Shown here: piece after piece, positions 9,254 through 60,330 of the stretch | Layout: the number at the start of each line of letters is the position of its first letter | Position numbering within the stretch: position 1 is the stretch's first letter | Origin: a candidate division WOR-3 bacterium UBA6260 | GTDB taxonomy: Bacteria; Hydrothermota; 32-111 | Reading direction: 5' to 3' | NCBI GenBank assembly: GCA_002441125.1 | Contig: DJVI01000015.1 | Span: 69,315 to 133,314 of the forward strand | DNA: 64,000 nucleotides | Position numbers and translations under genes: made by a program | Notes under the pieces: generated by a model | Databases searched by the model: none | The model's input: the letters and a program-made list of their open reading frames with translations, nothing else | Told to the model about the DNA's origin: nothing

Positions 9254-9931
9254 TTATTTCATACTTTGTAAAATTTTTTCTACCATCTTCTGTGACTGAC
9301 TTGGACCTATTATCATTGATGATGCTTTTGAAAATCTTTTCAAAAATTCATCAAGTTTACTCTGACTTAAGTTTTTTATATCCAATTTCATTTCTGAAAC
9401 AATGTTGTTAATTATATCTTCTGCAAAATCCTCAAGGAACTCACCAGCGATTTTTTTGATTTTATTGAAAGAATCACCATCAATGTTTAAAGTAGAAACG
9501 GTTTCCTCTTTTTCAACAATTTTCTCTTTGACTTCTTCTTTTACAGGTTGTGAAGGTTTAACAACTATCTTTTTCTTGTCCTTTAAAGCTATTTTAACTT
9601 TATCTTCCTTTTCCTCTTTTATAGATTCTTTTTCAACAATCTCAGCAAAATCTATATCATCAACTATAACATTCTTGTTAACTATCAATCCAAAAAAAGA
9701 ACCTTTTTTGTGGAAAAAAATTATCTTTTTATCTTCATTCTGGAATTCTATTTTATCAATTTTGGATACATTGGCTGCATCGAGTGATTGTTTTAAAACA
9801 ACTATTACCTGTTTAACAACATCATCTGTATAGCCAACAATACCTGTTTTTTGGATCATATCGTTTTCATTAGAGAAGACAAAATCAGCATCAAATTTTT
9901 CCCTTATCTTTTCTATATTGTACCCCATCAA
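9254..9931 (-). CDS. roadblock/LC7-like domain protein with acidic/lysine-rich linker
   Basis: N-terminal ~100 aa fits a roadblock/LC7 (MglB-like) pattern (MIQKTGIVGYTDDVVKQVIVVLKQSLDAA...KKIIFFHKKGSFFGLIVNKN), followed by an E/K-rich low-complexity region. Confidence 0.45.
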   Translation of the reverse strand: MMGYNIEKIREKFDADFVFSNENDMIQKTGIVGYTDDVVKQVIVVLKQSLDAANVSKIDKIEFQNEDKKIIFFHKKGSFFGLIVNKNVIVDDIDFAEIVEKESIKEEKEDKVKIALKDKKKIVVKPSQPVKEEVKEKIVEKEETVSTLNIDGDSFNKIKKIAGEFLEDFAEDIINNIVSEMKLDIKNLSQSKLDEFLKRFSKASSMIIGPSQSQKMVEKILQSMK

Positions 9932-9939
9932 GCCTCCCT

Positions 9940-10707
9940 TTATCTTTTGCTCAACTTTTCAATAACATTTTGAACCATTTTTTTCGCTTCAGATGCCCCA
10001 TAAACTTCAACCGCTTTTTTACACACTCCATCTATCAAAACTTTAGTTGTCCTTTGAATATCATCCCTACTTATTTCAACTGGAACTATATCTTTAATCT
10101 CTATTTTATCCTTTATATCGAGTGCTTTTTCTAAAATATCTAAATTTGAAAGATTATCTTTTATAAAATTGTTCCAGACCTTTCTATCACCACCTTGGGA
10201 GAACTCATCAACAAGAAGATTTAACTGTAGAATTTTTGAAAGTAAAAGTTTTCTCTCTATCTCTCCCAACATGTTAACTTCCTGTTGGGTTGATACATTT
10301 TCAAAAGGATTATAAGGTTTTTGAAAAGCTTCTTCAACTACAGGTTTGTTTTCAACTATCTTTTCTTCCTCAACTTTTGGAGACTCTGCTATTTTTTTAA
10401 ACTCTTCATAGAATCTATTCGTATCAACATCTCCATTGATTTTAAAAAGTAAAAATTCATTTTTTTCTGAAATCAAAATAAGGTTATTCCCATCAACCTT
10501 TATAAATGATATTAAAGGATAACCCATCTGAAATTTTTTAAATATAACATCTCCCGCAGAACCAAGAAATGCACCTATATCTCCGAGATTGTTAGGCTGT
10601 TCTCCAACTTTTTCAAGTATAGTTCCATCCTCCTTGTTCAATCTCATAGCCCCAAATACTGGAATGAAACCTTTCATTTTTTCAACTAGTTCAGAAAGTT
10701 CCATCAC
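9940..10707 (-). CDS. roadblock/LC7-like domain protein
   Basis: IPVFGAMRLNKEDGTILEKVGEQ...GDIGAFLGSAGDVIFKKFQMGYPLISFIKVDGNNLILISEKNEFLLFKI fits the roadblock fold pattern. C-terminal half unassigned. Confidence 0.45.
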   Translation of the reverse strand: MMELSELVEKMKGFIPVFGAMRLNKEDGTILEKVGEQPNNLGDIGAFLGSAGDVIFKKFQMGYPLISFIKVDGNNLILISEKNEFLLFKINGDVDTNRFYEEFKKIAESPKVEEEKIVENKPVVEEAFQKPYNPFENVSTQQEVNMLGEIERKLLLSKILQLNLLVDEFSQGGDRKVWNNFIKDNLSNLDILEKALDIKDKIEIKDIVPVEISRDDIQRTTKVLIDGVCKKAVEVYGASEAKKMVQNVIEKLSKR

Positions 10708-11584
10708 TCACCCCTTCTTTATTTAAAAGTTCCCTATATTTTTTCTTAGCTATCATTCCTCCATACTCTTCAACACCTTTTTCAACGATCTTTTCGAAAA
10801 GGATCTTTTTCATATTTCTCACTTTAGCTTCATCGATGAACCTGTCTGCATTGTCATCTATTTCAATCATTTCATTTTTGAATTTTAAAAATCCAGCTAT
10901 AATTTCAAAACCAGAGTTAGTTAAAAGATCAACTATAAAGTTGAACCAATCTTTGGAATTCGTATTTTTCACGGAGAAAGTATCAAGAATATTGTTTAAA
11001 CTTTTTTCAAAATCTTTTCTTAATTTTTCAACAAAAGATTTATCAAAAATAAGACCTTTTGAAATCAAATATTCCAAAGATTTATATGATTCTATAAGAG
11101 GAAGGTTGCTTTCTTTTATAACAGTTCTGATATTTTTTTTACCATCAACAATTCTAATTATTACCCAATCCGTTTTTCTCAAACTTATGTTATCTCCAAG
11201 TCCTTCAGCCCTCTTTTCCAAAACAGCATCGAAAGAAGGTAACCTTTTCAAAATATCATCAAACTCGATTCTTCTTTTTTCAATCTGTTCTATAAGAGAT
11301 GATGTGTTTTGTTGTTCGATTGTGATTTCGTCAGTTTTTTCACCATCAATATAAGTTATAACTCCGTTCCTTTCGATGGAGAGATTGTATAAAGCTTCTT
11401 CTCCTGTAAAAGTGTTATAAACTGCATGTTTTGGTAAACCGTTTTCAAAAAATATTTTCCCTTCTTTATCCTCAAAATTAAAAATAAGAACACCTGTTCT
11501 CTGTTTTGATGAGATGAGATTTATAAATTCAACTGGACTGAAAATCTCAAGATTCGCTTTTAAATCTACCTTCTCTTTATCCAT
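10691..11584 (-). CDS. DUF4388-domain protein
   Basis: N-terminus FSPVEFINLISSKQRTGVLIFNFEDKEGKIFFENGLPKHAVY matches the DUF4388 signature (DLLQLL..KTGVL...G.IYF..G.IV). Confidence 0.5.
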   Translation of the reverse strand: MDKEKVDLKANLEIFSPVEFINLISSKQRTGVLIFNFEDKEGKIFFENGLPKHAVYNTFTGEEALYNLSIERNGVITYIDGEKTDEITIEQQNTSSLIEQIEKRRIEFDDILKRLPSFDAVLEKRAEGLGDNISLRKTDWVIIRIVDGKKNIRTVIKESNLPLIESYKSLEYLISKGLIFDKSFVEKLRKDFEKSLNNILDTFSVKNTNSKDWFNFIVDLLTNSGFEIIAGFLKFKNEMIEIDDNADRFIDEAKVRNMKKILFEKIVEKGVEEYGGMIAKKKYRELLNKEGVSDGTF

Positions 11585-12312
11585 TCCTCATCCTTATATT
11601 TTTCAACAATTTTTTTAAACTCTAAATCGTTTAAATCTAACTCTACTTTTTGCCATTCAAAATCGAGCTCCCTAAAAAAAACTTTGTAAAATAAAAAAGA
11701 CATATCTTTGATATTATAATTTAAACCTGTTAAATTTTCAATATTGTTTGAAAATTTTTTCCCATAAATTTTTTCCTGTGGTATAACGCTTTCTTTTACA
11801 AGAATAGTTCCCTGTTGTAAAAAATTTTTTTCAGAGAATGTCTGGGCACTCCCAACTATCTTTTCTCCATTTAAACTTATCTCGTACACAGATTGTGATC
11901 CAAAACAATCAGCTATAAAATTATCTTTCTTTTCACCCTGAGTCAGTTTCGCATTTATACCTATCTTTTCAAAAGCTTTTATAAAGATCTCTGAAATTTT
12001 TTTATACCTTTCTAAAAGACCTCCATTTTTACCAAAGAATTCAATGTTGCCAACAAAAGAGTAAGTCAGATCTCCACTATGTAAAACAGCTCTTCCTCCA
12101 GTCATCCTTCTTGTTATATCAATACTCTCTCTTTTTATATAATCATAATCTATTCCAAAATTGTACCTTTGATTGTATCCGATTGTAATTGAAGGTTTAG
12201 AAAAAGAATAGAATCTGAAAAAAACAGTATCAATGTTTTTATAAGCCCATTCATCACAAGCCATATTTGTATAAACATCAAAAACAGAGTAATCTAAATA
12301 GTAACCTTTCAT
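11566..12312 (-). CDS. lipoate--protein ligase / octanoyltransferase family (BPL/LPL catalytic domain)
   Basis: 248 aa. RRMTGGRAVLHSGDLTYSF resembles the LplA RRxTGGGAVxHD motif. Later K-containing motif (GEKIVGSAQ). Confidence 0.65.
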   Translation of the reverse strand: MKGYYLDYSVFDVYTNMACDEWAYKNIDTVFFRFYSFSKPSITIGYNQRYNFGIDYDYIKRESIDITRRMTGGRAVLHSGDLTYSFVGNIEFFGKNGGLLERYKKISEIFIKAFEKIGINAKLTQGEKKDNFIADCFGSQSVYEISLNGEKIVGSAQTFSEKNFLQQGTILVKESVIPQEKIYGKKFSNNIENLTGLNYNIKDMSFLFYKVFFRELDFEWQKVELDLNDLEFKKIVEKYKDEEWIKRR

Positions 12313-12929
12313 CTTAAAACTTTAAGCCAATCTGATAAAAGGAAATATATCCTTCCTATTAAAAGTGAAATACGAGCCATAACCGTATAACCGAATGATG
12401 CCCCAAAAGCAACCATTATGAAGGTTATACCTATTTTTGATCCCCATCTTAAAACACCTTTCTGTTCTTTTGAGAAATAGAAGTAAATGAGTGTTGTCAG
12501 AACACCAAATACTATCAGAAAGTTGTTAAAAGTTTCAAAATTGAATCCTGTCAAGGGAACAAGAGTTGCCTGAACCTGAGGCAGTATGAAACCTTGTATA
12601 GCACCTGTAACTCCAAGTCCCGCACCCATTCCGACTGTGAACGCTATAGACCATCTTGATAACCATGATATCTGTGGAAACCATCTTGTTAACATTATTA
12701 TTCCAAAAAATGCAGGTATTATAAGAATGAACTGTTTATTTTTGATCATAGGATCGAGAAGCATAGGTTGTATAACATAAGCCCATGTGTATATTATCCA
12801 GTATCCTGCAGTTATTCCAACATAAAGATGTTCAGCGAATTTGTAGAAAGGGTTATCCTTATAAAGGAAAGAATATATAAATAGGGTTAAACCAGCAGCG
12901 ATCCAAATTCCAATTGTTGTTCCCATCAT
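12309..12929 (-). CDS. module copy 1, gene D: polytopic membrane protein of unknown function
   Basis: 206 aa, ~6 TM. Shares IWIAAGLTLFIYSFLYKDNPFYKFAE.../...GITFIMVAFGA.FGYT.MAR.SL.IGRI.FLLSDWL with 15720..16325. Confidence 0.6.
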   Translation of the reverse strand: MMGTTIGIWIAAGLTLFIYSFLYKDNPFYKFAEHLYVGITAGYWIIYTWAYVIQPMLLDPMIKNKQFILIIPAFFGIIMLTRWFPQISWLSRWSIAFTVGMGAGLGVTGAIQGFILPQVQATLVPLTGFNFETFNNFLIVFGVLTTLIYFYFSKEQKGVLRWGSKIGITFIMVAFGASFGYTVMARISLLIGRIYFLLSDWLKVLR

Positions 12930-13768
12930 TTTCCTCCTTCTTTATTTTTCATTCCCTTTTCGATGAAATAAGCAATGTTTCCTAAAACTATGAAAAGTAT
13001 TATTACAAGATGTGAATAGGATTGTGATGCCATACCTGCTACAGCAAGATCAGGTTTATCAACAAGAACTTCATATTCTGCAGCACCTTTCATACCTCCA
13101 ACGAGTCCAACAATCTGACCTGATTGATAAAAGTAATAAGCATCAGGTGCTGAAACAGCGTTCAAAGCGAGAGCTATCTTCTGTTTGAACCTTCCACCTG
13201 CGTACTCGATCCAAGCAAGATATGTTGAACCGGCTTCAAGACCAACAAGTAGTGCAATATCATTATAGTTGTGAACATTCTTCATCATAGGGAATGAATC
13301 AAGAGGAATATTTCTATAATCTACCTTGAAATAGTCCCTTATCTCTTTTCCTATACCGACCATCTGGGCAACATAACCTGGTCTGTATCCTAAATTTATA
13401 TAATCAACACCATACACTGCTCCCATCTCTTTTGCAATTTTCTCAAGTCCCATAGTTCCAAGTGGAGCTCCAAGTTGCCATTGAACTATAAGTATTGGTT
13501 TTAACTTGTTTTTAAAAAGTTGTCTTAAAAGAGCTTCAAGAAATGGCTGCTGTTCAGGCATTGAAGCTGCATCGTAATCTATCGAAATCAAAACATTACT
13601 TCCTTCAGGCAATTTTTCTATATAATCGTAAACATCTTGAACAGGTTTTGAAACAACAACCGGAAATTTTGGTTTAAATATTAAAGGTAGAACAACTACC
13701 AAAGCTATGAAAAGGTATATGAATCTTCTATCTATTTTTGAAAGTTTTATAAAAAAATTCATAATCAC
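12926..13768 (-). CDS. module copy 1, gene C: bitopic membrane protein (N-terminal TM, extracytoplasmic domain, C-terminal TM)
   Basis: 280 aa. Paralogous to 16325..17191 (shared ...RWIYL.LAL....P..F..., GG.KGAAEYE.L.DK, ...NIAYF..K). No recognisable family. Confidence 0.6.
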   Translation of the reverse strand: MIMNFFIKLSKIDRRFIYLFIALVVVLPLIFKPKFPVVVSKPVQDVYDYIEKLPEGSNVLISIDYDAASMPEQQPFLEALLRQLFKNKLKPILIVQWQLGAPLGTMGLEKIAKEMGAVYGVDYINLGYRPGYVAQMVGIGKEIRDYFKVDYRNIPLDSFPMMKNVHNYNDIALLVGLEAGSTYLAWIEYAGGRFKQKIALALNAVSAPDAYYFYQSGQIVGLVGGMKGAAEYEVLVDKPDLAVAGMASQSYSHLVIILFIVLGNIAYFIEKGMKNKEGGK

Positions 13769-13771
13769 TCC

Positions 13772-14410
13772 TTATGAAAGATAACTTCTTTCTATACCCA
13801 AAATTATCCTTATGGAAACACCCAAAGCACCTAAAGATATTCCAAGTCCAATTCCTCTTTTTGCAGCCATCTGTGGTACCTGCATTATCCATTCGGTAAA
13901 TTTTGGAAGGTAAGGGGAAATCTGTTCTCCAAGTGGAACCCTTCCGAGCATAACTATTATAGCTGTAATGAGTAGAAGTGTAGCATCAAAATTTCTTGCT
14001 CTGAAAGCTCTGTAAGCTGCAGATGCTATAAAGAAAGCGAGAAGTGAAAACATTGTTGACTGTAATGGAACGATAAAATAGTTGTATATGTATGTAAAAT
14101 AGGATTTATCGTCGAACGCTGTTCCAAACCTTACTGTTTCTATAATACCAACTACAACTGTTGCGGTGAAACCAAGTATAAGAACCAATGAAAAGAACCA
14201 GTTCTCATCTTTTCTCTTCAACTTTCTAAAATGCATTCCTATCAAAGAATCAACCCCAAGAAGCATTGTAAAACCAGCTATTATCGAATACCAGTTCAAA
14301 GATATTTTCTCTATATCACCAAAAGGTTTATGAGGAATAAAGAAAGAGATTATCATTATCATTCCAACCAAAAATGTTATAAAAATCGGGATCCCTTTTC
14401 CTTTCAACAT
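13772..14410 (-). CDS. module copy 1, gene B: polytopic membrane protein of unknown function
   Basis: 212 aa, ~6 TM. Conserved core QSTMFSLLAFFIASAAYRAFRARNFDATLLL.TA.IV.LGRVPLGE shared with 17188..17865. Confidence 0.6.
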   Translation of the reverse strand: MLKGKGIPIFITFLVGMIMIISFFIPHKPFGDIEKISLNWYSIIAGFTMLLGVDSLIGMHFRKLKRKDENWFFSLVLILGFTATVVVGIIETVRFGTAFDDKSYFTYIYNYFIVPLQSTMFSLLAFFIASAAYRAFRARNFDATLLLITAIIVMLGRVPLGEQISPYLPKFTEWIMQVPQMAAKRGIGLGISLGALGVSIRIILGIERSYLS

Positions 14411-14421
14411 TTTTCCTCCTA

Positions 14422-15741
14422 CTAAACTTGTAAAGCTCTAGCTAACAGATCGAATAGATTTTTAAAAATTCCTATATTGAATCCATAAGCAAAAATAGAT
14501 AGGACAAAACCAACTATTATCAAAACCATTATAAAAACTTTCAAAAGGTCTTCAGCAGCGATCGAACCAAGCATCATTGGTTCTTTCTGAAGGTAAACTG
14601 AAGCAGCCATCATTTCCTCTCCTATAAGAGTATAGTCGCATGCTGCAACAAAGAATGGTAGTTGTGCTGTTTCAGTTGTACCAGAAATCTGTATCGCACC
14701 AATTGAATGTCCAGTTTCAGCGAGTATCAAAGATTCTGCAAAGAATAAACCTTGAAGGAAGACCGCTCCCGGTTTTTCCCTCATCATCATACCATCAACA
14801 CCTGCTGCATATCCAAACTGATCCTGAGTTATATACATTATATCGTTTTTATTATAAAGGTCTGGTCTACCAGCTTCAGTGAAAGCTTCTTTAACAACCT
14901 CCTGTGCTGTTGTCATAACAACAGGATCATAGGAAGGAACAAGAATCTTTGTTTCATACTCTGCAACCTTTTTAGAAACTCTACTAAGAATTGTAAGTCC
15001 AGCTATAGTTGGAATATCTGTAACATAACCTATTCCGAGAATATACATTATCGGTTTTCCCATCTCTGTACTTCTACCAACAGCCTCTTCAACAGCATCA
15101 AGTCCATTTATCTTTCTGATGTAAAGTTCTTTTCCACTTTTCGCAAGGTTCAGATAGTATAAAAAGACGAAAGAGATAAGTATAAGAGATATAACTACTG
15201 GAATCCTTGAAAGGTTAAACCATGAAGCTTTTGAAATAATGGCATCTGTCTCAGCTGTAACATAAAATGTATCATTATTGAAAATGTAGATACCATTTTT
15301 TGAGTAACCATTCTCTTTTGAAATCAACATGTTCAAAAAATCTTCATCTACCATCTTTTTACTCAAAATTCCAGTGTAGTAATATTTTGTTCCATCCTTT
15401 ACTCTTGATGGATCTTCTTCTGAGCTAACATCTCTTACCTGTTTTGATGAAACAAGAAGGTCTGTTGCAACAATAGAGTTGTTCCCAGCCTCATCCTTTC
15501 TCAAAACAGTTAAAAAAAAGTTATCCAAAGAATCAGGAAAGGACCACTCTATTTCTATACCACCTCCACCATCGTTAGGGATATCTTTACCTGTAATAGC
15601 GAATCCTTCAAAAGGTGTTTGATTCTCTAAAAAAATCAAACTATCATTTTCAGAGAAAAGTGAGATTGAAAGAATAAGAAAAACTATCAAAAGAAGGGTT
15701 CTTTTTAACACCTCTCCTCCTATTTTATTATTCCAAGCCAA
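14422..15741 (-). CDS. module copy 1, gene A: large membrane protein of unknown function (signal/TM, variable ectodomain, TM, conserved cytoplasmic domain, C-terminal TMs)
   Basis: 439 aa. C-terminal ~220 aa is ~60% identical to 17874..19097 (GK.L..RKI.GLD...EAVGR.TEMG.P..Y...DI.TIA.L.IL..V.KK.AEYETK...P..DP.VMT.A.EVVKE...EAGRPD.YN.NDI...T..QFGYAA.V.G.M.REKP...). N-terminal ectodomain diverged. Confidence 0.6.
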   Translation of the reverse strand: MAWNNKIGGEVLKRTLLLIVFLILSISLFSENDSLIFLENQTPFEGFAITGKDIPNDGGGGIEIEWSFPDSLDNFFLTVLRKDEAGNNSIVATDLLVSSKQVRDVSSEEDPSRVKDGTKYYYTGILSKKMVDEDFLNMLISKENGYSKNGIYIFNNDTFYVTAETDAIISKASWFNLSRIPVVISLILISFVFLYYLNLAKSGKELYIRKINGLDAVEEAVGRSTEMGKPIMYILGIGYVTDIPTIAGLTILSRVSKKVAEYETKILVPSYDPVVMTTAQEVVKEAFTEAGRPDLYNKNDIMYITQDQFGYAAGVDGMMMREKPGAVFLQGLFFAESLILAETGHSIGAIQISGTTETAQLPFFVAACDYTLIGEEMMAASVYLQKEPMMLGSIAAEDLLKVFIMVLIIVGFVLSIFAYGFNIGIFKNLFDLLARALQV

Positions 15742-16325
15742 TCTGAAAGAAGAAACTGTATTCTTCCTATAAAGAGGGAAACTCTCGCCATAATAGTGTA
15801 TCCGAAAGCTGCTCCGAATGCAACCATTATGAAAGTTATTCCAACTCTTGAAACTCTTCCAACGAAACCTTTATGTTCGAGAGAAAAGAAAAAATAGACT
15901 AAAGTTGAAATTACTCCAACAACTATGATCAAACTTCCAAAATCCAATTTTAAAGGCATAGTTGCATATACCTGTTTAAAAAGAAATTCGAAAGATGAAG
16001 GAACTGAAAGTCCTGTTCCAGCACCAACAACAAAAGCTATAGGTATTCTTGAAAGATAGGAAACATTTTTAAAAAACCTTGAAAACATCAATAAACCGAG
16101 CAGAAGCGGAATCAAAACAAGGAAATTCTTATCGTAAACAAGAGGGTTATAAACTTTCGTAATTATAGTGTTGTGCCAGTAAACTGATATACCGTAACCT
16201 ATAGATATTCCTACAAGAAGATATTCTGCAAACTTGTAGAAAGGATTGTCTTTATATAGAAAAGAATAGATAGCAAGTGTAAGTAAAGCAGCTATCCATA
16301 TCCAAAAATTAGTTGCAATAGCCAT
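15720..16325 (-). CDS. module copy 2, gene D (paralog of 12309..12929)
   Basis: 201 aa polytopic membrane protein. N- and C-terminal blocks collinear with copy 1 gene D. Confidence 0.6.
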   Translation of the reverse strand: MAIATNFWIWIAALLTLAIYSFLYKDNPFYKFAEYLLVGISIGYGISVYWHNTIITKVYNPLVYDKNFLVLIPLLLGLLMFSRFFKNVSYLSRIPIAFVVGAGTGLSVPSSFEFLFKQVYATMPLKLDFGSLIIVVGVISTLVYFFFSLEHKGFVGRVSRVGITFIMVAFGAAFGYTIMARVSLFIGRIQFLLSDWLGIIK

Positions 16326-17191
16326 TATTTACCCTCCTTTCTCTTCTTAACAAAATATGCGATGTTTCCAAGAATGATAAGTATAATAAAAAATATGTGT
16401 GCTGAAGATTGTGCATCCATCCCTATAGAAGCATCCTTTCTTCCACCATAAACATTTTTCTTATCAAGTAAATGTTCATATTCTGCAGCACCTTTCAAAC
16501 CACCAAGCATTCCTATCGCCTGTTTTGACTGGAGGTAAGAATAATACTCGGCTGCTGATACAGCGGTTGTTCCAATACCCATTTTCAAACCATACCTTCC
16601 ATTTGCATAGATGAGCCATGTCAAAACAACAGAACTACCGGCGAGTTCAACCATAAGGTTTATATCATTATAATTTTTTATCCCTTTCATAACTTCAAGT
16701 TCAGAGAGTTTATTTCCATAGCCATCCTCATTGAAAGTTTGAGTTATATCCTCTCCCATCTTCAAAACAACAGCACTTACTCCCGGAACATAGGCGAGTA
16801 ATGTTATATCTTTTCCAAGTTGTTTCTGATTTTCAGGATTGCTTTTGTTCCATTCTTTTAAAACATTATCTATTGCATCCTGTGCCATTCCAGCACCCTG
16901 TGGATACAGTGTTACAAAGAGAACTCTTAAATTGTTTGATAGAGCGTGTGCTGCTATAACTTTTGCCATAGGATGAAGTTCAGCCATTGTTGATGGATCA
17001 TAATCTGCACCTATCAGAACAACTCCTCCTTCTGGAATAGAGTCCTCAATAAAATCATAGATAGATTTTACAGGAGGTGTAGTTTTCATAGGGAATCCAA
17101 CCGGAAACAAAAAGGGTATTATTATGCATAAAGCGAGAATAAGATATATCCATCTTTTATCAAGATTGCTGATAAAATTTATAAATTTCAT
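16325..17191 (-). CDS. module copy 2, gene C (paralog of 12926..13768)
   Basis: Track ORF 16325..17317 is over-extended. Paralog alignment (MKFINFISNLDKRWIYLILAL vs MIMNFFIKLSKIDRRFIYLFIAL) places the start at the internal ATG at 17191. That gives a 4-nt overlap with gene B, as in copy 1. Confidence 0.55.
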   Translation of the reverse strand: MKFINFISNLDKRWIYLILALCIIIPFLFPVGFPMKTTPPVKSIYDFIEDSIPEGGVVLIGADYDPSTMAELHPMAKVIAAHALSNNLRVLFVTLYPQGAGMAQDAIDNVLKEWNKSNPENQKQLGKDITLLAYVPGVSAVVLKMGEDITQTFNEDGYGNKLSELEVMKGIKNYNDINLMVELAGSSVVLTWLIYANGRYGLKMGIGTTAVSAAEYYSYLQSKQAIGMLGGLKGAAEYEHLLDKKNVYGGRKDASIGMDAQSSAHIFFIILIILGNIAYFVKKRKEGK

Positions 17192-17865
17192 TTTCCTCCT
17201 CCAAGATATTTCCTTTCTATTCCAAGTATAATCTTTATAGATGTTGCTATAATACCAAGTTGGACACCTATAAGTATTCCTCTCTGAGCTGCCATATTCG
17301 GATATTTCAAGATCCATTCAACAACATCTGGAAGCCCTTTGTAAATGAATTCACCAAGTGGAACCCTTCCAAGAGTTACTATACCTGCTGTTACCAAAAG
17401 CAAAGTGGCATCAAAACTTCTCGCTCTGAAAGATCTGAAAGCTGCTGAAGCCATATAGAAAGCGAGTAGTGAAAAAATTGTGGATTGCATAGGCATCTGC
17501 ATGTAAAGGTATGTATACATCAAAGGTGTTGTATCGGTTGGTTTTACAGAAGGAAAAATCTTCATCCATAAAGTTGTTGGCATGAAAGCACCACCAAAAA
17601 CTCCAAGTAAAGCAGTCACAAACAAAGAAACAAGAACGATAATAGAATACTGCCACCCCTCAACCTTTCTTTTAATCTTAGTAAAATGTAGTTCAACTGT
17701 TGACTGAACAGCAATAAGGTAAGTGAATGCTGATACTATTATAAGCCAATCTAACATCAAGTTGTAAAAACTTTTTGATGCTGGATGTGGTACAAAAAAT
17801 TGCAAAATGAGTGCTATACCAAAGATCGCTGATACTAAAAGTGGTAATGTTCTTCTTAAAAACAT
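17188..17865 (-). CDS. module copy 2, gene B (paralog of 13772..14410)
   Basis: 225 aa, ~6 TM. Conserved QSTIFSLLAFYMASAAFRSFRARSFDATLLLVTAGIVTLGRVPLGE core. Confidence 0.6.
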   Translation of the reverse strand: MFLRRTLPLLVSAIFGIALILQFFVPHPASKSFYNLMLDWLIIVSAFTYLIAVQSTVELHFTKIKRKVEGWQYSIIVLVSLFVTALLGVFGGAFMPTTLWMKIFPSVKPTDTTPLMYTYLYMQMPMQSTIFSLLAFYMASAAFRSFRARSFDATLLLVTAGIVTLGRVPLGEFIYKGLPDVVEWILKYPNMAAQRGILIGVQLGIIATSIKIILGIERKYLGGGK

Positions 17866-17873
17866 ATTAACTC

Positions 17874-19097
17874 CTAACTTTTAAATATGAATCTTAAAAT
17901 TTCAAGAATTTTATTTAGAAAAACCAAATTGCCACCTGTTATCCAAGAAATCAAAAGGATTACAAAATAAAAAGTAATAATAAAAATTATAAAACCTTTG
18001 AAATAATCTTGTGCTTTCAAAGTACCAAGCAAAAGTGGTTCCCTTGAAAGGTAAGCACTTGCAGCGTAAAGCTCCTCTCCAATTATAGTATAATCACAAG
18101 ATGTTATAAAAAATGGCAACTGTGTTACAGCATCTGTTCCTGCTATCTGAATAGCACCTGTTGTATTTCCTGCTTCAGCCATGATGAGTGATTCAGCCCA
18201 AAACATTCCGAGAAGTAGGTTTGTGGCTGGTTTCTCTCTTGTCATTATTCCTGAAACTGCAGCAGCGTATCCAAACTGAGAATCAGTTAAGAAGAATATA
18301 TCGTTATCGTTGTAAACATCTGGTCTTCCGGCTTCAGAGTAAGATTCTTTAACAACCTCTTTGGCAACAGTCATAACTATAGGATCCCTGTTTGGAACTA
18401 TAAGTTTTGTTTCATACTCCGCAATCTTTTTTGCTACAGGGCCAAGAATGTTCAAAGATGCTATAGTAGCTATATCTGACATTGAAGAAGAACCAGGGAC
18501 ATAAAGTACAGGTCTTCCCATCTCTGTTGCTCTTCCAACAGCTTCATCGAGTGTATCAAGACCTGAGATCTTCCTTACAAAAAGATCCTTTCCCTTTCTA
18601 ACACTTTCAACAAGGTAGATTATTACCATAGTGTAAATTATTATCATAAGTAAAAGTATAGTTTTATCAGTTTTAAAAAGATCAGCTTTTGGAGAAAAAT
18701 CACCTATCAAACATTTCTCAGATTCGTTACCCAAACTATCTGAAACCGCAAGATAATATTGGTATTTTTTTTGATAGGATAATCCCTCATCAACTATTTT
18801 TACCGGAAAGGACTGAAAAGTTTTAACATTTTTAAAAACTGTATCATTTAACTCTTTCCTGTAAAGTTTGAATAAAGAGTTGTTCCCTTCAAGAACCTTT
18901 TGACATGAGATCTCGAGTTTACTTCCGTCATCGTTGGATACATCTTTAATTTGGAACTCTTTAACAATAGTTGAATCAACTCTAACTACTGGTTCATCTT
19001 TTGAAGTTTCATTCTGAGGGAATGTTATTATAAAAGAAAGAATTATAAAAATGAAAAAGAAGATTTTGTTTTTCATTTTACTCCTTTTATTCTTCAA
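17874..19097 (-). CDS. module copy 2, gene A (paralog of 14422..15741)
   Basis: 407 aa. Signal peptide/TM, divergent ectodomain, conserved C-terminal domain as in copy 1. Confidence 0.6.
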   Translation of the reverse strand: MKNKRSKMKNKIFFFIFIILSFIITFPQNETSKDEPVVRVDSTIVKEFQIKDVSNDDGSKLEISCQKVLEGNNSLFKLYRKELNDTVFKNVKTFQSFPVKIVDEGLSYQKKYQYYLAVSDSLGNESEKCLIGDFSPKADLFKTDKTILLLMIIIYTMVIIYLVESVRKGKDLFVRKISGLDTLDEAVGRATEMGRPVLYVPGSSSMSDIATIASLNILGPVAKKIAEYETKLIVPNRDPIVMTVAKEVVKESYSEAGRPDVYNDNDIFFLTDSQFGYAAAVSGIMTREKPATNLLLGMFWAESLIMAEAGNTTGAIQIAGTDAVTQLPFFITSCDYTIIGEELYAASAYLSREPLLLGTLKAQDYFKGFIIFIITFYFVILLISWITGGNLVFLNKILEILRFIFKS

Positions 19098-20208
19098 TCA
19101 ATTCAACATTCGCTCTTGGAAGCACTATCCTTTTACCATCCTCAAATTCAAATTCAAGAACCCTGACATGTGCTTCAGTTTCAATTTTTTGCAACTGTGA
19201 TGGGAGCCCAACAACTTTTCCTATTGCACCAAAATATGGCTGTCTTATTATTCTTACTACAGAATTGATATCCATTCCCATCTCAGCATGTTTCGATTCT
19301 TCAACAATAGTATCTATATCGTATGTAACTATAACTTCGGGTCTCATAACACCAGCCCTTATCTGAGTTGCACCATTTATTGAAGCCCTCTTACCATCAT
19401 TCTTTGAAAGAATATCGAAAGTTTTCTTCGCCATAGTCATCTGCCCGAACCCTTCTGTAACTATAACTGTAACTCCCTTCTCTTCCTGCCCGGTTATAGC
19501 AACACCTATCTCCTCACCAAGAAAATCCTTCAGATCCTTATCATCTATTCCACCAACAACAATACCTATAACTCCCTTTTTAACACATTCGTTTAAAATT
19601 TCACTTGTAACAAGGGATCCACCTATAACTATTTTTCCTTTCAAATCTTCAGTTATATCATTTTTAGTTAAAACATAGTCAGGTGATTTAGCAACAAGTT
19701 TCAACTCTCCCTTTACCTCTCCACCTATTCCGAAAATACCCTGAATGAATGTCGCTGGTGTTTGAACAACTATACCTTCATTCTCTATAACCTCAACAAC
19801 TTTTCCGTTAACATAAGCATCTATTTCGACCTTTTTTGGAGGTTTTCTTAAAGTCAACATTCCAGTTATATCAGAATAGTTTTCAACTATTCCATCGATA
19901 GGAGAAGGTATCGATGTTTTGAACAATCCTAAAAATCCTTTAGATTCAGCTATTATCTGATCTTTTTTTATCTTATCTCCAATAGAAACTTTCAAAAATG
20001 AACTCGCCTCTTTTGGAGGAACTCCAAGTTTTCCAGCAAGATTCAATCTCTCAACATCTCCTGGAAGTTCTGTCCTAGCAACTATATCATCAGCTTTCAC
20101 TAAATCTCCAACTTTAACAAGAACCTCTCCTTTTAAAGGTAATCTACGCTCTTTTTTTACTATTGCCTTTTCTGTAACTTTTAAACCAGGTGTATATGAA
20201 TGTGCCAT
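19087..20208 (-). CDS. hypothetical protein with hybrid-barrel (lipoyl/biotinyl-like) N-terminal motifs and a Gly-rich C-terminal region
   Basis: 373 aa, soluble. GEVLVKVGDLVKADDIVAR and IIAESKGFLGLFKTSIPSPIDGIVE resemble lipoyl/GcvH-like barrel strands. C-terminal GIVVGG...VIVTEGFG repeats. No confident family assignment. Confidence 0.4.
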   Translation of the reverse strand: MAHSYTPGLKVTEKAIVKKERRLPLKGEVLVKVGDLVKADDIVARTELPGDVERLNLAGKLGVPPKEASSFLKVSIGDKIKKDQIIAESKGFLGLFKTSIPSPIDGIVENYSDITGMLTLRKPPKKVEIDAYVNGKVVEVIENEGIVVQTPATFIQGIFGIGGEVKGELKLVAKSPDYVLTKNDITEDLKGKIVIGGSLVTSEILNECVKKGVIGIVVGGIDDKDLKDFLGEEIGVAITGQEEKGVTVIVTEGFGQMTMAKKTFDILSKNDGKRASINGATQIRAGVMRPEVIVTYDIDTIVEESKHAEMGMDINSVVRIIRQPYFGAIGKVVGLPSQLQKIETEAHVRVLEFEFEDGKRIVLPRANVELIEE

Positions 20209-20219
20209 AATTCCTCCAT

Positions 20220-22013
20220 TTATTTCTCAGGATAGACATTTAAAGCTTTTATCCATTTCTTCAACTTTTCTACCCTTTCATTATCATTTTCCGGGAGTAC
20301 AAAAGGTCTTCTTCCTCTTGCATCAACTATAACTCCAACTACTCCACCCTCAAGTTCAGCCTCAACCTCTTTACCTTTACCGTTACCAAGGTCAAGTCCC
20401 TTTGCAACACTTATTACAGCTTTTACTTTTTTGTTAAGTTCAAGAGGTATAACTCCCATATCGCCAAAATTGAATACGAATTCTTTATCATCAAATTTTA
20501 TCCTAACAGCTTCCTGCCCTTCCTTAATATTTCCCATAGGTGCTATACATGAACCTAACCTTATCAAACAGTCCTTTTCGAAAACTTCTGTTGCCGCTTT
20601 TTCATGAACGGTTGATAAGACACCAAGTTGTGGCATCATGAATATAGAATCAACTGTAAGCATGGTTATACCTTCAGGTAAAAATGCATCTATCATCATA
20701 AGAGCTGACTGTACTCTTCTTGGTGCATGAGAAAGAACTCCACCTGAGCCGACTATAAGGTTTAGTGTAAGCATGTTAACAAGTGTTTCTCCTGTACTCG
20801 TTTGTTCAAATGCATCGGAAATCGTTCTTTCTTTTTGAACTCCCTTAAGACCAACAGCCATAGTTTTATGTTGTTCGAGAGCGAGTCTTAAAGCTTCTCT
20901 CGAAATAGCTTGTTCTATCTGTAACTCATCCAAAGTTGATGGAATCGTGGTTGGTCTTATCATCTTATTTCGTATCCTGTTTCTAAGATCCTTTTCATCC
21001 ATATGGAATGGAACCCATCTCATAATATTTTTAAGTCCAGCTTCTTTAACAACATTTGAAATGGAATAACTCATACCAAGGTTTGCTGAAACTGTTCTGT
21101 TGAAAGTGTTCTGGAAGTATGAGAAAACATCCGTTGTTGCTCCTCCAATATCAACTCCCAAAACCTCTATCTTATCCCTTTTCCCTATAGTTTCAATCAA
21201 AAGACCAACGGCACCTGGAGTTGGCATTATTGGAACATCAGTCATATCCATAAGTTTTCTGTAACCCGGTGCCTGAGCCATAACATGTTCCATGAAAAGA
21301 TCATGTATTTTATCCCTTGCTGGTTTTAAATTCTCTTTTTCAAGTGTTGGTCTCAAATTATCAACAATATAAAGTGCAGTTTTCTTTTCAAGCCTTTCTT
21401 TTATCTCATCAACAGCTTTATTGTTACCAGCATATATTACAGGTAGTTTATACCCAGCACCAAATCTTGGTTTTGGATCAGCTGCCTGGATTATCTCGGC
21501 GAGTTGGACAACATGCGTTATGGTTCCTCCATCTGTTCCACCAGAAAGGAGTATCATATCAGGTCTTAATGTTCTAATCCTTTTTATCCTTTCATGGTCC
21601 ATCCTCTTATCGTTTGTTGCAATAACATCCATAACTATCGAACCTGCACCGAGCGCAGCCCTTGCGGCAGATTCGGCACTCATTTTGTCAACAACACCAG
21701 CAACCATCATCTGTAAACCACCACCTGCAGAAGATGTTGAAATGTAGATGTCAACTCCATCACCTTCACTCTTCTCTCTTTTTATTATATTGTCTCCATC
21801 CAAAATCTTTATTCCAGCGAGTTCTTCAACCTCTTTTATTGCGTTGAGAACACCCTTTGTAACATCTTCATAAGGTGCTTCAACTGTTGTGGGAGCTTCA
21901 CCTCTAACTATCAAACGATATTCGTTTTCTCTTTTTTCTATCAAAATAGCTTTTGTTGTGGTGGATCCACAATCAGTTGCAAGTATTCTCGTAATTTGAT
22001 CCTTCTCTTTCAT
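20220..22013 (-). CDS. ASKHA-fold protein related to glutamate mutase accessory protein GlmL/MutL
   Basis: 597 aa. N-terminal ILATDCGSTTTKAIL phosphate-1 motif and overall layout resemble GlmL (MutL) family ATPases. Longer than canonical GlmL, so function is uncertain. Confidence 0.5.
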   Translation of the reverse strand: MKEKDQITRILATDCGSTTTKAILIEKRENEYRLIVRGEAPTTVEAPYEDVTKGVLNAIKEVEELAGIKILDGDNIIKREKSEGDGVDIYISTSSAGGGLQMMVAGVVDKMSAESAARAALGAGSIVMDVIATNDKRMDHERIKRIRTLRPDMILLSGGTDGGTITHVVQLAEIIQAADPKPRFGAGYKLPVIYAGNNKAVDEIKERLEKKTALYIVDNLRPTLEKENLKPARDKIHDLFMEHVMAQAPGYRKLMDMTDVPIMPTPGAVGLLIETIGKRDKIEVLGVDIGGATTDVFSYFQNTFNRTVSANLGMSYSISNVVKEAGLKNIMRWVPFHMDEKDLRNRIRNKMIRPTTIPSTLDELQIEQAISREALRLALEQHKTMAVGLKGVQKERTISDAFEQTSTGETLVNMLTLNLIVGSGGVLSHAPRRVQSALMMIDAFLPEGITMLTVDSIFMMPQLGVLSTVHEKAATEVFEKDCLIRLGSCIAPMGNIKEGQEAVRIKFDDKEFVFNFGDMGVIPLELNKKVKAVISVAKGLDLGNGKGKEVEAELEGGVVGVIVDARGRRPFVLPENDNERVEKLKKWIKALNVYPEK

Positions 22014-22342
22014 TTATCCTCCTTAATATCCTTCTTCTTTCTCTTATGTTGATTTTCAAAATCTTCTATATACCTTATAAGTTTTTCAACAGAATCTCTC
22101 TCTTCAAAAATAAGAGATGCTTCACGGTACTCTTTTATGTTAAAAAATGTCAAAATTATTGGTTCCAGAAAAATCATTATCTGAGCACTTATGAAATTCA
22201 TAGGTTTTATGGATTCGAGAAACATTATAGCTGGAGCTGTCAAACTCCTCTTTACAATATTCTCAGCTATCTTTTTTAATATCTCCTCTTTCCTTTCAAG
22301 AGGAATCTCTTTTGGACTAACAGGTTGAAAACTCTTATCCAT
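22010..22342 (-). CDS. hypothetical small protein
   Basis: 110 aa. Overlaps gcvPB stop by 8 nt and the downstream gene start by 4 nt, which suggests translational coupling. Confidence 0.4.
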   Translation of the reverse strand: MDKSFQPVSPKEIPLERKEEILKKIAENIVKRSLTAPAIMFLESIKPMNFISAQIMIFLEPIILTFFNIKEYREASLIFEERDSVEKLIRYIEDFENQHKRKKKDIKEDK

Positions 22343-23789
22343 TATTTTCCCTGTACCAGTTTACAAAAAGATTTTTCAAAGCGTAAATATCATCAGGTCT
22401 TGAAACTGGAGTTGATGAAGGTGCACTTTTAACTTTTTCAGGATCATTTTTGGCTTCCTCATCTATCTTTTTCATAGCTTCTATGAAAGAGTCTAAAGTT
22501 TCCTTTGATTCGGTTTCGGTAGGTTCTATCATTATCGCTTCGGAAACTATAAGTGGGAAATATACTGTTGGAGCGTGGAAACCGTAATCCAAAAGTCTTT
22601 TTGCTATATCGAGAGTTGTAATGTTGTAATCCTTTTTATGTTTTCTTCCACTGAAAACAACCTCATGCATAGTTTCATTTTTGTAAGGCAGATCGTATAT
22701 ATTCTGAAGTTTCCTTTTAATGTAATTAGCGTTAACTATTGCCATCTTTGAAGCCTCACTCAAACCATCCCTTCCCATAACTTTTAAATAAGCCCAAGCT
22801 CTTATCATTATGTTTACATTACCATAGAATGAATGTAAAGATCCGATAGATTTTTCAGGATAATCTAATGAATATTTCCCATTTTCAAATTTTACTATGT
22901 AAGGTGGAAGAAAATCTTTTAATTTTTCCACAACTGCAACTCCACCTGCACCGGGTCCACCACCTCCATGTGGAGTTGAAAAAGTTTTATGAAGGTTGAT
23001 ATGTAAAATATCGAATCCTATTTTTCCAGGCTTTACTATTCCCATAAGTGCGTTCATGTTAGCTCCATCCATATATATAAGTCCACCTTTACCATGAACA
23101 ATCTGAGAGATCTTCTCTATCCTGCTTTCAAAAATTCCAAGTGTGTTTGGATTGGTTATCATTATTCCTGCTGTATCCTCATCCATATTCTTTTCAAGAT
23201 CGTCAAGATCTATTTCGCCATTTTGATCAGATTTTATCTGAACAGCTTTAAAACCTGAAAGTGTTGCTGAAGCTGGATTTGTTCCATGTGCTGAATCTGG
23301 AATAAGTATCTTTGTCCTCTTTTCGTTTTTACTCTTAAAATAATCACTTATAATCATCATTCCAGCAAACTCACCATGCGCACCGGCAACTGGTTGCAAA
23401 GAGATTTTAGAAAATCCTGTAACTTTCAAAAGCATATCCTGTAATTCATACATTATCTGAAGTATCCCTTGAACATCATCCTCATCCTGATATGGATGTA
23501 ATTTTGTAAATTTCGGATTTGAAGAGATATCTTCGTTTATAACTGGATTGTATTTCATCGTACATGATCCCAAAGGATAAAATCCCTTTTGAAGATGATG
23601 GTTTTTGTTTGAAAGTAAAACAAAATGTCTCAAAAGATCTATCTCTGAGACAACAGGCAATGATGTTTCTTCTTTTCTGAGATTATCACTTTTTATACAA
23701 TCTGAGAGTTTTATTGGAAATTGGTTTTCAGGTAATGAAACAATATTTGTATCTTCATCTGATAATTTAAAAATCAATCTATCATACAT
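22335..23789 (-). CDS. gcvPB: glycine dehydrogenase (decarboxylating) subunit 2
   Basis: 484 aa. PLP-dependent, signature GSCTMKYNP and HINLHKTFSTPHGGGGPG. Confidence 0.9.
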   Translation of the reverse strand: MYDRLIFKLSDEDTNIVSLPENQFPIKLSDCIKSDNLRKEETSLPVVSEIDLLRHFVLLSNKNHHLQKGFYPLGSCTMKYNPVINEDISSNPKFTKLHPYQDEDDVQGILQIMYELQDMLLKVTGFSKISLQPVAGAHGEFAGMMIISDYFKSKNEKRTKILIPDSAHGTNPASATLSGFKAVQIKSDQNGEIDLDDLEKNMDEDTAGIMITNPNTLGIFESRIEKISQIVHGKGGLIYMDGANMNALMGIVKPGKIGFDILHINLHKTFSTPHGGGGPGAGGVAVVEKLKDFLPPYIVKFENGKYSLDYPEKSIGSLHSFYGNVNIMIRAWAYLKVMGRDGLSEASKMAIVNANYIKRKLQNIYDLPYKNETMHEVVFSGRKHKKDYNITTLDIAKRLLDYGFHAPTVYFPLIVSEAIMIEPTETESKETLDSFIEAMKKIDEEAKNDPEKVKSAPSSTPVSRPDDIYALKNLFVNWYRENNG

Positions 23790-50037: not shown

Positions 50038-50052
50038 ATATTTTCCTTTTTT

Positions 50053-50130
50053 TCAGGCGGCGGAGACAGAGGGCTTTTACTGCTGCTTCCTTTCGGATCT
50101 GACAGGGTTCAAGACATATCTCCCCGCCAT
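50053..50130 (-). ncRNA. ffs: signal recognition particle RNA (small 4.5S-type), upstream of dnaX
   Basis: Minus-strand sequence GGCGGGGAGAUAUGUCUUGAACCCUGUCAGAUCCGAAAGGAAGCAGCAGUAAAAGCCCUCUGUCUCCGCCGCCUG. Contains the conserved domain IV core (CAGAUCCGAAAGGAAGCAGC, cf. E. coli GGUCCGGAAGGAAGCAGC). 5' GGCGGGGAGA pairs with 3' UCUCCGCC. Canonical position 5' of dnaX-ybaB-recR. Confidence 0.75.
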
Positions 50131-50168
50131 TTTTATAATACCATTTATAAAACTATTTTCAAGATGAA

Positions 50169-60182: not shown

Positions 60183-60330
60183 AAAAAACCCGATTTTACA
60201 ATCGGGGCTTATTATCCTTCTTCCATCCTGACTTTACAGTCGGCACCGTAATTTCAACGGTTCAGCTTTCGCTCGCGGGCTTTACCGCCGGTCGGGATTT
60301 TCACCCAGCCCCGAAGGAAAAATGATTATA
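60183..60330 (-). promoter_or_regulatory. FMN riboswitch (RFN element) with intrinsic terminator, leader of ribD-ribE-ribBA-ribH
   Basis: Minus-strand CUUCGGGGCUGGGUGAAAAUCCCGACCGGCGGUAAAGCCCGCGAGCGAAAGCUGAACCGUUGAAAUUACGGUGCCGACUGUAAAGUCAGGAUGGAAGAAGGAUAAU aligns almost motif-for-motif with the B. subtilis ribD RFN aptamer. Followed by AAGCCCCGAUUGUAAAAUCGGGuuuuuuu terminator hairpin (60183-60210). Confidence 0.85.

Follow-up and report, generated by a model that had tools for sequence, protein, structure and literature searches.

The 64,000-nucleotide stretch analysed here (hereafter the window), which belongs to contig DJVI01000015.1 of the candidate division WOR-3 bacterium UBA6260, has a GC content of 32% and encodes proteins best matched by those of candidate division WOR-3, carries on its minus strand a densely packed row of genes. 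In this row, gcvPB is followed by genes for a small hydrophobic protein (p110), a 597-aa ASKHA-fold ATPase (MutL597), a 373-aa protein (p373), two membrane modules (A-D and A'-D') and an LplA-type ligase (Table 1). Comparison with related loci firmly supports the view that MutL597 and p373 constitute a functional pair together with p110, and the intact motifs of the ATPase predict, just as firmly, that the pair is ATP-dependent. The evidence is equally firm in setting MutL597 apart from the GlmL-type accessories of B12 mutases and, as judged from residue conservation, p373 from conserved lipoyl or biotinyl carriers. More tentatively, and with considerable doubt, we propose that MutL597-p373 hydrolyses ATP as the cytoplasmic part of a new inner-membrane machine formed with the A-D modules, which would probably serve uptake for amino-acid and glycine catabolism.

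In the window, the row from gcvPB through p110, MutL597 and p373 to the module is translationally coupled. The reading frames of gcvPB and p110 overlap by 8 nt and those of p110 and MutL597 by 4 nt (ATGA); gaps of 11 nt and 10 nt, containing GGAGG and AAGGAG, respectively, separate MutL597 from p373 and p373 from subunit A. An earlier inspection of the DNA letters without database searches, here called the sequence-only reading, had described three open reading frames (ORFs) between gcvPB and the membrane modules, coupled to gcvPB, with a lipoate ligase a few kb away. Our analysis recovered all three ORFs on the minus strand at the positions given in Table 1, the coupling to gcvPB in the form of the 8-nt overlap, and the ligase as an LplA-type gene.

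The wider context of the pair was read at 80 species-level genome loci encoding p373, with flanks of 8-10 kb per locus and counts limited to loci with enough flank; the tblastn comparisons under-count small or weakly similar proteins (p110, p156, LplA at 26-34% identity). The sampled lineages are WOR-3, Stahlbacteria, Hydrothermota, Zixibacteria, Fermentibacteria, Eisenbacteria, Latescibacterota, Cloacimonadota, Edwardsbacteria, Coatesbacteria and Ignavibacteriaceae, together with a few oddly labelled metagenome-assembled genomes (MAGs). A MutL gene lies upstream of p373 at 51 of 65 loci and is directly adjacent at 38, and the p110-MutL-p373 set was seen in a dozen or more uncultured candidate phyla of the Fibrobacteres-Chlorobi-Bacteroidetes (FCB) type. 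Relatives of p373 amount to more than 8000 word-sharing matches and to 1040 clusters (50% identity) at E<1e-30, so that its ORF is not a chance occurrence. Moreover, an exhaustive profile search retrieved natural MutL::p373 fusions in two independent clusters, in which a linker of 25-40 aa joins the two parts (loci L085-L087). One of them (P0261, 995 aa) comprises 8 full-length members from several assemblies, and its operon consists of p109, the fusion gene, a DUF6754 gene and genes for proteins of 232, 293 and 311 aa. The other (P0327, 1003 aa) comprises 4 members from Ozemobacteraceae, where the fusion gene overlaps the start of a gene for a Wzz/GNVR polysaccharide co-polymerase. These natural fusions are strong evidence that MutL597 and p373 act as one physical unit.

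Between phyla, identities are 57-80% for MutL and 50-68% for p373 as compared to 47-57% for GcvPB at the same loci, and this stronger constraint fits a multi-partner machine. A group of p373 genes in WOR-3 and Hydrothermia has no adjacent MutL gene (L001, L008, L010, L014, L017, L029, L037, L050, L055) and is directly preceded by an ORF of 816-982 aa, which in the three loci scanned or annotated (L001, L008, L010) encodes a TMEM260-like GT-C glycosyltransferase with tetratricopeptide repeats; a PorV-like protein and/or AccA is encoded just 3' of such MutL-less p373 genes in L014, L050 and L055.

The ATPase itself is a well-supported member of the MutL family in the sense of Pfam. PF13941 covers residues 10-482 of MutL597 with 427.9 bits against a gathering threshold of 27, and the phosphate-1 motif ILATDCGSTTTKA, which had been recognised from the letters alone, occupies residues 10-22. 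Across 42 diverse relatives the mean column identity is 75%, and the phosphate-1 core ATDCGSTTTKA, the phosphate-2 motif DIGGATTD and a GSGG motif are invariant, as are, among the cysteines, C15 and C482 only. The AlphaFold2 model, with a predicted local distance difference test score (pLDDT) of 79, shows an ASKHA core followed by an all-beta domain (483-575) and a terminal helix (577-591). The all-beta C-terminal domain is confidently predicted and specific to this family; sequence and profile searches of the PDB returned no relatives for whole MutL597 or for this domain. Foldseek matches in the PDB (N-methylhydantoinase, acetophenone and acetone carboxylases, Hsp70, FtsA, butyrate kinase) are those of a generic ASKHA protein, with query-length-normalised TM-scores of at most 0.3, and weak Pfam matches to Hydantoinase_A and Hydant_A_N stay under the per-domain threshold.

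In NCBI and UniRef this subfamily goes under 'glutamate mutase L' or 'methylaspartate mutase', a label that the context does not support and that we consider wrong. MutL597 shares with GlmL and with Or-4 of the ornithine pathway the ASKHA fold, the PF13941 match and the phosphate-1 motif, but it misses the cut-offs of the NCBIfam GlmL equivalog NF040745 (229.2 bits, cut-off 475), of Or-4 (216 bits, cut-off 600) and of the GlmL subfamily TIGR01319 (169.4 bits, cut-off 204). It also exceeds the GlmL models, which span 450-459 positions, by a C-terminal extension of ~115 aa that includes the all-beta domain, in line with the greater length noted in the sequence-only reading. That reading had also found no mutase genes nearby, and this holds: neither glmS/glmE nor a B12-binding gene occurs among the window genes scanned or annotated from 9940 to ~30200, a crude search of all six frames of the whole window with the pattern DxHxxG...SxL...GG found no B12-binding motif, and no mutase or B12-binding gene is annotated at loci L083-L090. 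Among the 138 ORFs flanking the pair at other loci, no B12-related family is found among the 25 most frequent of 122 families. Where GlmL- and Or-4-type proteins have glmS/glmE, oraS/oraE, kamD/kamE or another B12 mutase gene as neighbours, MutL597 has p373 and p110 as partners, conserved proteins that are unrelated to any mutase. The possibility that MutL597 is an ordinary GlmL-type accessory, presumably a reactivase, for a B12-dependent mutase encoded elsewhere accounts for the 473-residue Pfam match and for the database names. It can also point to a loose parallel with the diol and glycerol dehydratase reactivases DdrAB/GdrAB and with EutA, which are built from an ASKHA ATPase, a swivelling beta/beta/alpha domain and a small second subunit; the counterparts here would be, besides MutL597, the RraA-like domain in p373 and, as small subunit, p110. 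In these systems, however, the domains are distributed differently over the polypeptides, no B12 enzyme lies near MutL597, and DdrAB, GdrAB and EutA are not among the 50 Foldseek matches listed for the MutL597 or p373 models. Given that family cut-offs, neighbourhood census and motif scan all run contrary to it, we rejected the reactivase identity, to which we assign the slightest chance of all readings considered; the sequence-only reading had leaned in the same direction in setting this protein apart from GlmL.

p373 has no dedicated Pfam or NCBIfam model. Its AlphaFold2 model (pLDDT 84) has four parts. A barrel-sandwich hybrid, into which two helices are inserted, spans residues ~10-121; a small beta-barrel (125-171) and a swivelling beta/beta/alpha domain with an RraA-like fold (~164-295) come next, and a KOW/SH3 domain (317-370) lies at the C-terminus. 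Foldseek found no analogue of the whole chain; single domains matched Thermotoga maritima NusG and KOW domains, RraA (1q5x, probability 1.0, target TM-score 0.51) and the biotin carboxyl carrier protein (BCCP) 2d5d. Comparison of the family profile with the PDB gave RraA 3c8o at E=0.009, which lends modest support to the RraA-like fold of the central domain. Aldolase and decarboxylase members of the RraA family use a catalytic Arg-Asp pair. In the p373 profile the positions aligned to this 'RD' pair read 'DD', that is, the Arg is replaced by Asp, which makes aldolase or decarboxylase chemistry of that type unlikely, and an activity like that of 4-hydroxy-4-methyl-2-oxoglutarate/4-carboxy-4-hydroxy-2-oxoadipate (HMG/CHA) aldolase was dismissed on this ground. 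Two invariant loops of low model confidence (residues 1-7 and 283-286) resemble contact sites. In a subfamily of 448-475 aa (P0292, P0302, P0307, P0334, P0345, P0350, P0377, P0390), an N-terminal insertion of ~78 aa is accompanied by extra weak matches of the barrel-sandwich type (Peptidase_M23, PTS_EIIA_1). Database labels for p373 include 'KOW domain-containing protein' in UniRef and, for one homologue at JGI, a transcription factor, and these names are likely to mislead metabolic reconstructions.

The sequence-only reading had seen in p373 two segments resembling lipoyl/biotinyl barrel strands and an ESK...SPIDG.V string reminiscent of the lipoyl-lysine region of GcvH, and had proposed an unrecognised lipoyl protein or maturation system. 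The segments and the string are real: weak matches to Biotin_lipoyl (28-44) and RnfC_N (72-113) fall into the N-terminal part, where model and Foldseek place the barrel-sandwich hybrid, and the string occupies residues 88-108. PF00364 (Biotin_lipoyl) reaches 23.3 bits for the whole protein (cut-off 22.1), with no single stretch above threshold. The proposed function did not hold up. The ESK lysine, K90, is kept by 45 of the 51 close relatives compared and by 65 of the 83 species representatives, of which the remaining 18 have R, S, Q, N, T, G, I or P instead; no lysine column anywhere in p373 reaches 90% conservation among these 83. K90 is missing even at loci with a full gcv operon and LplA (L021 and L072, R; L015, T), and the Ozemobacteraceae fusion P0327 has neither K90 nor K97. 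From lysine to SP the spacing is 12 or 5 residues in p373 versus 7 in GcvH, the hairpin is lengthened by a conserved hydrophobic insertion of 7 residues (GFFGLF), and local alignment to GcvH scores only 22, with the conserved SP..G strings out of register. Thus, p373 resembles GcvH and BCCP in its N-terminal fold, the weak Biotin_lipoyl match and the 2d5d match, but differs in lacking a conserved lysine, in its lengthened and helix-split hybrid and in its three further domains; this N-terminal domain behaves like the unmodified barrel-sandwich hybrids of the RnfC_N type found in RnfC and NqrA. Canonical GcvH genes share the operon with p373 in other phyla, so that p373 is not needed as an H-protein.

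On the grounds of lysine conservation and spacing, we rejected the lipoyl-lysine hypothesis. In favour of p373 as an unrecognised lipoyl or biotinyl carrier, or of a trio that acts as a lipoyl maturation system with GcvPB and LplA, one can cite that the cluster is flanked by gcvPB and an LplA-type ligase, both in the window and in several further phyla, and that BioY or AccA/AccD lies beside p373 in a few loci. However, Zixibacteria, Cloacimonadota and others have the cluster with neither gcv nor lplA, and we give this reading a very small probability. Two further candidates were rejected as well: an NqrA/RnfC-like subunit of an Rnf/Nqr complex, for which there is only the weak RnfC_N match, with NqrA and RnfC absent among the 50 Foldseek matches listed and no Rnf-Nqr family match in module subunits B and D, and a redox substitute for the L-protein, since Pfam and NCBIfam scans of the 10 cluster proteins detected no flavin, iron-sulfur or other redox family.

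The membrane module next to the pair is a robust four-gene unit that merits study for its own sake. At 38 of the 40 metagenome loci with enough sequence 3' of A (DUF6754-centred loci L091-L170), the genes for B, C and D come next. Modules often form tandem arrays of two or three, and many are stand-alone; no alternative ATPase was found beside the stand-alone modules, whose flanks are heterogeneous (PurF, radical SAM, Wza-like, T9SS cargo). According to hydropathy, subunit A consists of an N-terminal signal or transmembrane segment, a periplasmic fibronectin type III (Fn3) domain, a transmembrane helix, the DUF6754 domain of ~200 aa, which is probably cytoplasmic, and a C-terminal transmembrane helix; Fn3 is the sole domain that a PDB profile search detected in it. 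In subunit C, transmembrane helices flank a periplasmic domain of ~200 aa. For B, C and D, searches of Pfam, NCBIfam and the PDB found no relatives, and consensus scans of B and D for weak Pfam matches gave nothing consistent. The two modules of the window are 40% (A), 46% (B), 39% (C) and 54% (D) identical; an internal symmetry of the module was considered and discarded, as hhalign found A and C, as well as B and D, unrelated and the four subunits mutually unrelated.

Linkage of the module to the pair is far above chance, though not obligatory at the level of the locus. At 28 of 63 loci, from at least 8 named phyla, p373 has a DUF6754 gene within 8 kb, be it upstream, downstream or on the other strand, and one to three tandem modules accompany a single ATPase gene, as is the case with shared energising units. 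The sequence-only reading had entertained an ATPase that serves the membrane complexes; this synteny speaks for the association, yet many loci are unlinked.

At many loci the pair is tied to glycine cleavage on its other side. A full or partial gcv operon with gcvPB directly upstream of the cluster was found at 18 of 52 loci, and ~15 loci of Fermentibacteria, Eisenbacteria and unclassified MAGs share the arrangement gcvT-gcvH-gcvPA-gcvPB-p156-p110-MutL-p373-A-B-C-D; in several of these, genes for LplA and a TonB-dependent receptor come next. In Latescibacteria (L088), gcvT-H-PA-PB directly precedes p106-MutL. LplA-like genes come after the module in L021, L039, L057, L072 and L076 and 3' of p373 in L012. 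The window gcvPB is bona fide, with 704.7 bits to the NCBIfam equivalog (cut-off 441) and the NLHKTF motif of the pyridoxal phosphate (PLP) lysine. It is indeed alone, as the sequence-only reading had stated: gcvT, gcvH and gcvPA are undetected anywhere in the 64-kb window. The same lone gcvPB stands directly upstream of p110 in L004, L013, L032, L089 and L090, that is, in WOR-3 and TA06-like genomes. As a full gcv operon occupies this position in other phyla, the lone gcvPB is a remnant of the ancestral arrangement, in which the break seems to fall between gcvPA and gcvPB. Rfam detected no glycine riboswitch in the window or in five gcv-linked loci.

Two small proteins may connect the pair with the membrane. 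p110, for which Pfam and NCBIfam scans gave no family match, has a hydrophobic core at about residues 34-70 with a single segment at 51-69, and an alignment of the window protein with those of 37 genome loci revealed the conserved core PAI.FLES.KPL.F.GSQ...F..P. Its gene precedes that of MutL at 35 or more of 61 loci, and L088 retains a p110-type gene (p106) upstream of MutL though p373 is absent. p110 is a candidate membrane tether of the ATPase. p156, which is not encoded in the window, is a small membrane protein with two transmembrane helices and a C-terminal domain of ~80 aa; its gene lies directly upstream of p110 in at least 25 loci from Fermentibacteria, Eisenbacteria, Zixibacteria and others (e.g. 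L021, 5370-5840).

Further neighbours recur as well. The census of the 138 flanking ORFs counted 19 GDC-P, 7 ExbB, 5 TonB-dependent receptor barrels, 4 BamD-like YfiO and 3 ExbD proteins. ExbB-ExbD directly follow p373 in five loci (L062, L063, L070, L073, L075) of Zixibacteria and Ignavibacteriaceae, and a TonB-dependent receptor and ExbB come after the module in Fermentibacteria (L023, L027, L034). Secreted peptidases and proteins with the C-terminal tail of type IX secretion system (T9SS) cargo are encoded nearby, AccD or BioY follows p373 in single loci, and Wza-like proteins are encoded upstream of some stand-alone modules. A literature search on the MutL597 subfamily, DUF6754 or the cluster found nothing relevant.

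Based on these observations we tentatively envisage the following mechanism for the proposed uptake machine. MutL597 and p373 would assemble, most likely in a 1:1 ratio, into a stable complex with ATP-binding and ATP-hydrolysing activity. This complex would probably be anchored to the inner membrane by p110, joined in other phyla by p156. The membrane part would be one or more DUF6754-type A-B-C-D modules, on which the pair is presumed to dock, and ATP hydrolysis may drive transport. The cargo would be a nutrient that feeds amino-acid and especially glycine catabolism, with glycine cleavage as the presumed link; it would pass from a TonB-dependent receptor in the outer membrane through A-D in the inner membrane to catabolism in the cytoplasm. 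The upstream gcv operons, ExbB/ExbD, TonB-dependent receptors, secreted peptidases and T9SS-tail proteins form the basis for the uptake theme.

Several observations weigh against this mechanism. To our knowledge, no ASKHA ATPase powers a transporter, and Pfam, NCBIfam and PDB searches found no subunit that is similar to a known transporter family. At many MutL-p373 loci a module is missing from the nearest 8 kb and, conversely, just 5 of the 28 long DUF6754-centred metagenome loci have MutL or p373 at a distance of up to 10 kb; as A-D is mostly found apart from the ATPase, the module may work alone or with other partners. L088 has gcv-p106-MutL with neither p373 nor a module nearby. Finally, AccA/AccD, a TMEM260-like glycosyltransferase and PorV-like, Wzz and Wza-like proteins recur as neighbours, and these point to envelope biogenesis rather than nutrient uptake. 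A formulation that leaves the cargo aside is that p110-MutL597-p373 and A-D represent an unrecognised class of inner-membrane machine powered by an ASKHA ATPase, a hallmark of FCB-type candidate phyla tied functionally to glycine cleavage, which could be either a primary transporter or an engine of envelope assembly; the tie would be strong enough to keep gcvPB translationally coupled in WOR-3 and TA06-like lineages once the other gcv genes had been lost from the locus. We regard this formulation as possible but doubtful.

Alternatively, MutL597-p373 could be a soluble two-component ATP-dependent enzyme of the hydantoinase, oxoprolinase or acetone-carboxylase kind, acting in glycine, one-carbon or CO2 metabolism. 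The ASKHA subunit would then phosphorylate a small substrate or bicarbonate, the partner would complete the reaction, and A-D would be an independent transporter in the neighbourhood. This is in keeping with L088, with the many stand-alone modules and with recurrent CO2- or carboxyl-handling neighbours (GcvP, AccA/AccD). N-methylhydantoinase, acetophenone carboxylase and acetone carboxylase are the top structural matches of MutL597, the weak Pfam matches lie in the hydantoinase families, the two proteins are fused in some lineages like HyuA and HyuB, and p373 combines a carboxyl-carrier-type with an RraA-like fold. However, TM-scores to the carboxylases are only 0.27-0.30, and p373 is unrelated to HyuB-type subunits, with no Hydantoinase_B match and a different fold. 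Neither its carrier lysine nor the Arg of an RraA-type active site is conserved, the latter being Asp. Conservation above that of GcvPB and a consistent hydrophobic partner, p110, are moreover both unusual for a substrate-specific catabolic enzyme, and we consider a soluble enzyme unlikely. The envelope neighbours, in turn, invite the idea that MutL597 is a mechanical ATPase, Hsp70-like as a chaperone or actin-like as a filament, with p373 as adaptor, and that it serves cell-envelope biogenesis by exporting or assembling polysaccharide, lipid or protein via A-D or other envelope machines. An ASKHA core with a beta domain and a terminal helix does resemble Hsp70, full-length Hsp70s are among the top structural matches, and the conservation across phyla is comparable to that of cytoskeletal or chaperone proteins. 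The recurring neighbours that fit this idea (ExbB/ExbD, TonB-dependent receptors, YfiO and Wzz, Wza-like, TMEM260-like and PorV-like proteins) are each found in no more than ~15% of loci, though; the query-length-normalised TM-scores to Hsp70 and FtsA are low (0.2-0.28), and Pfam and NCBIfam place the family in the hydantoinase/GlmL branch, which does not polymerise. An envelope ATPase of this kind therefore strikes us as rather improbable.

Table 1. Genes of the gcvPB-MutL597-p373-module row and their positions in the window.
Feature	Position	Strand	Evidence and remarks
gcvPB, glycine dehydrogenase subunit 2	22335-23789	-	NCBIfam GcvPB equivalog and NLHKTF PLP-lysine motif; heads transcription unit
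p110, small hydrophobic protein	22010-22342	-	one hydrophobic segment; no Pfam/NCBIfam match
MutL597, ASKHA-fold ATPase, 597 aa	20220-22013	-	PF13941, 428 bits
p373, four-part soluble protein, 373 aa	19087-20208	-	AlphaFold2 model, Foldseek
Module 1, subunit A	17874-19076	-	PF20539 (DUF6754), 390 bits; AAGGAG upstream of start at 19076
Module 1, subunit B, polytopic	17188-17865	-	
Module 1, subunit C	16325-17191	-	transmembrane helices at both ends
Module 1, subunit D, polytopic	15720-16325	-	
Module 2, paralogous A'-B'-C'-D'	12309-15711	-	A' 14422-15711, B' 13772-14410, C' 12926-13762, D' 12309-12929
LplA-type lipoate-protein ligase catalytic domain protein, 248 aa	11566-12312	-	Pfam PF21948 and PF03099; 4-nt overlap with D'

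Beyond this row, the minus strand 3' of the LplA-like gene (9254-11584) encodes a 297-aa PatA_N/DUF4388 protein and two proteins of 255 and 225 aa that are rich in Lys and Glu, all of which show no conservation with the cluster at other loci. An Rfam scan also identified a flavin mononucleotide (FMN) riboswitch at 60211-60322 (minus strand; 115 bits, gathering score 66) and a bacterial small signal recognition particle (SRP) RNA at 50050-50131 (minus strand; 45.8 bits).

Taken together, MutL597 and p373, with more than 1000 sequence clusters, are among the most strongly conserved pairs of these uncultured phyla, including WOR-3, Zixibacteria, Fermentibacteria, Eisenbacteria, Cloacimonadota and Latescibacterota, yet have had no assigned function. 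The misnaming of the ATPase could cause metabolic reconstructions of MAGs to infer B12-dependent glutamate fermentation wrongly. With the module, B, C and D become defined as three orphan protein families, next to a subunit A known only as a DUF. The fusions, the tight operon and the recurrent link to gcv make the cluster a concrete target for experiments. If the proposed machine exists, it would be the first membrane machine driven by an ASKHA ATPase of the hydantoinase/GlmL type and might represent a new principle of energy coupling.

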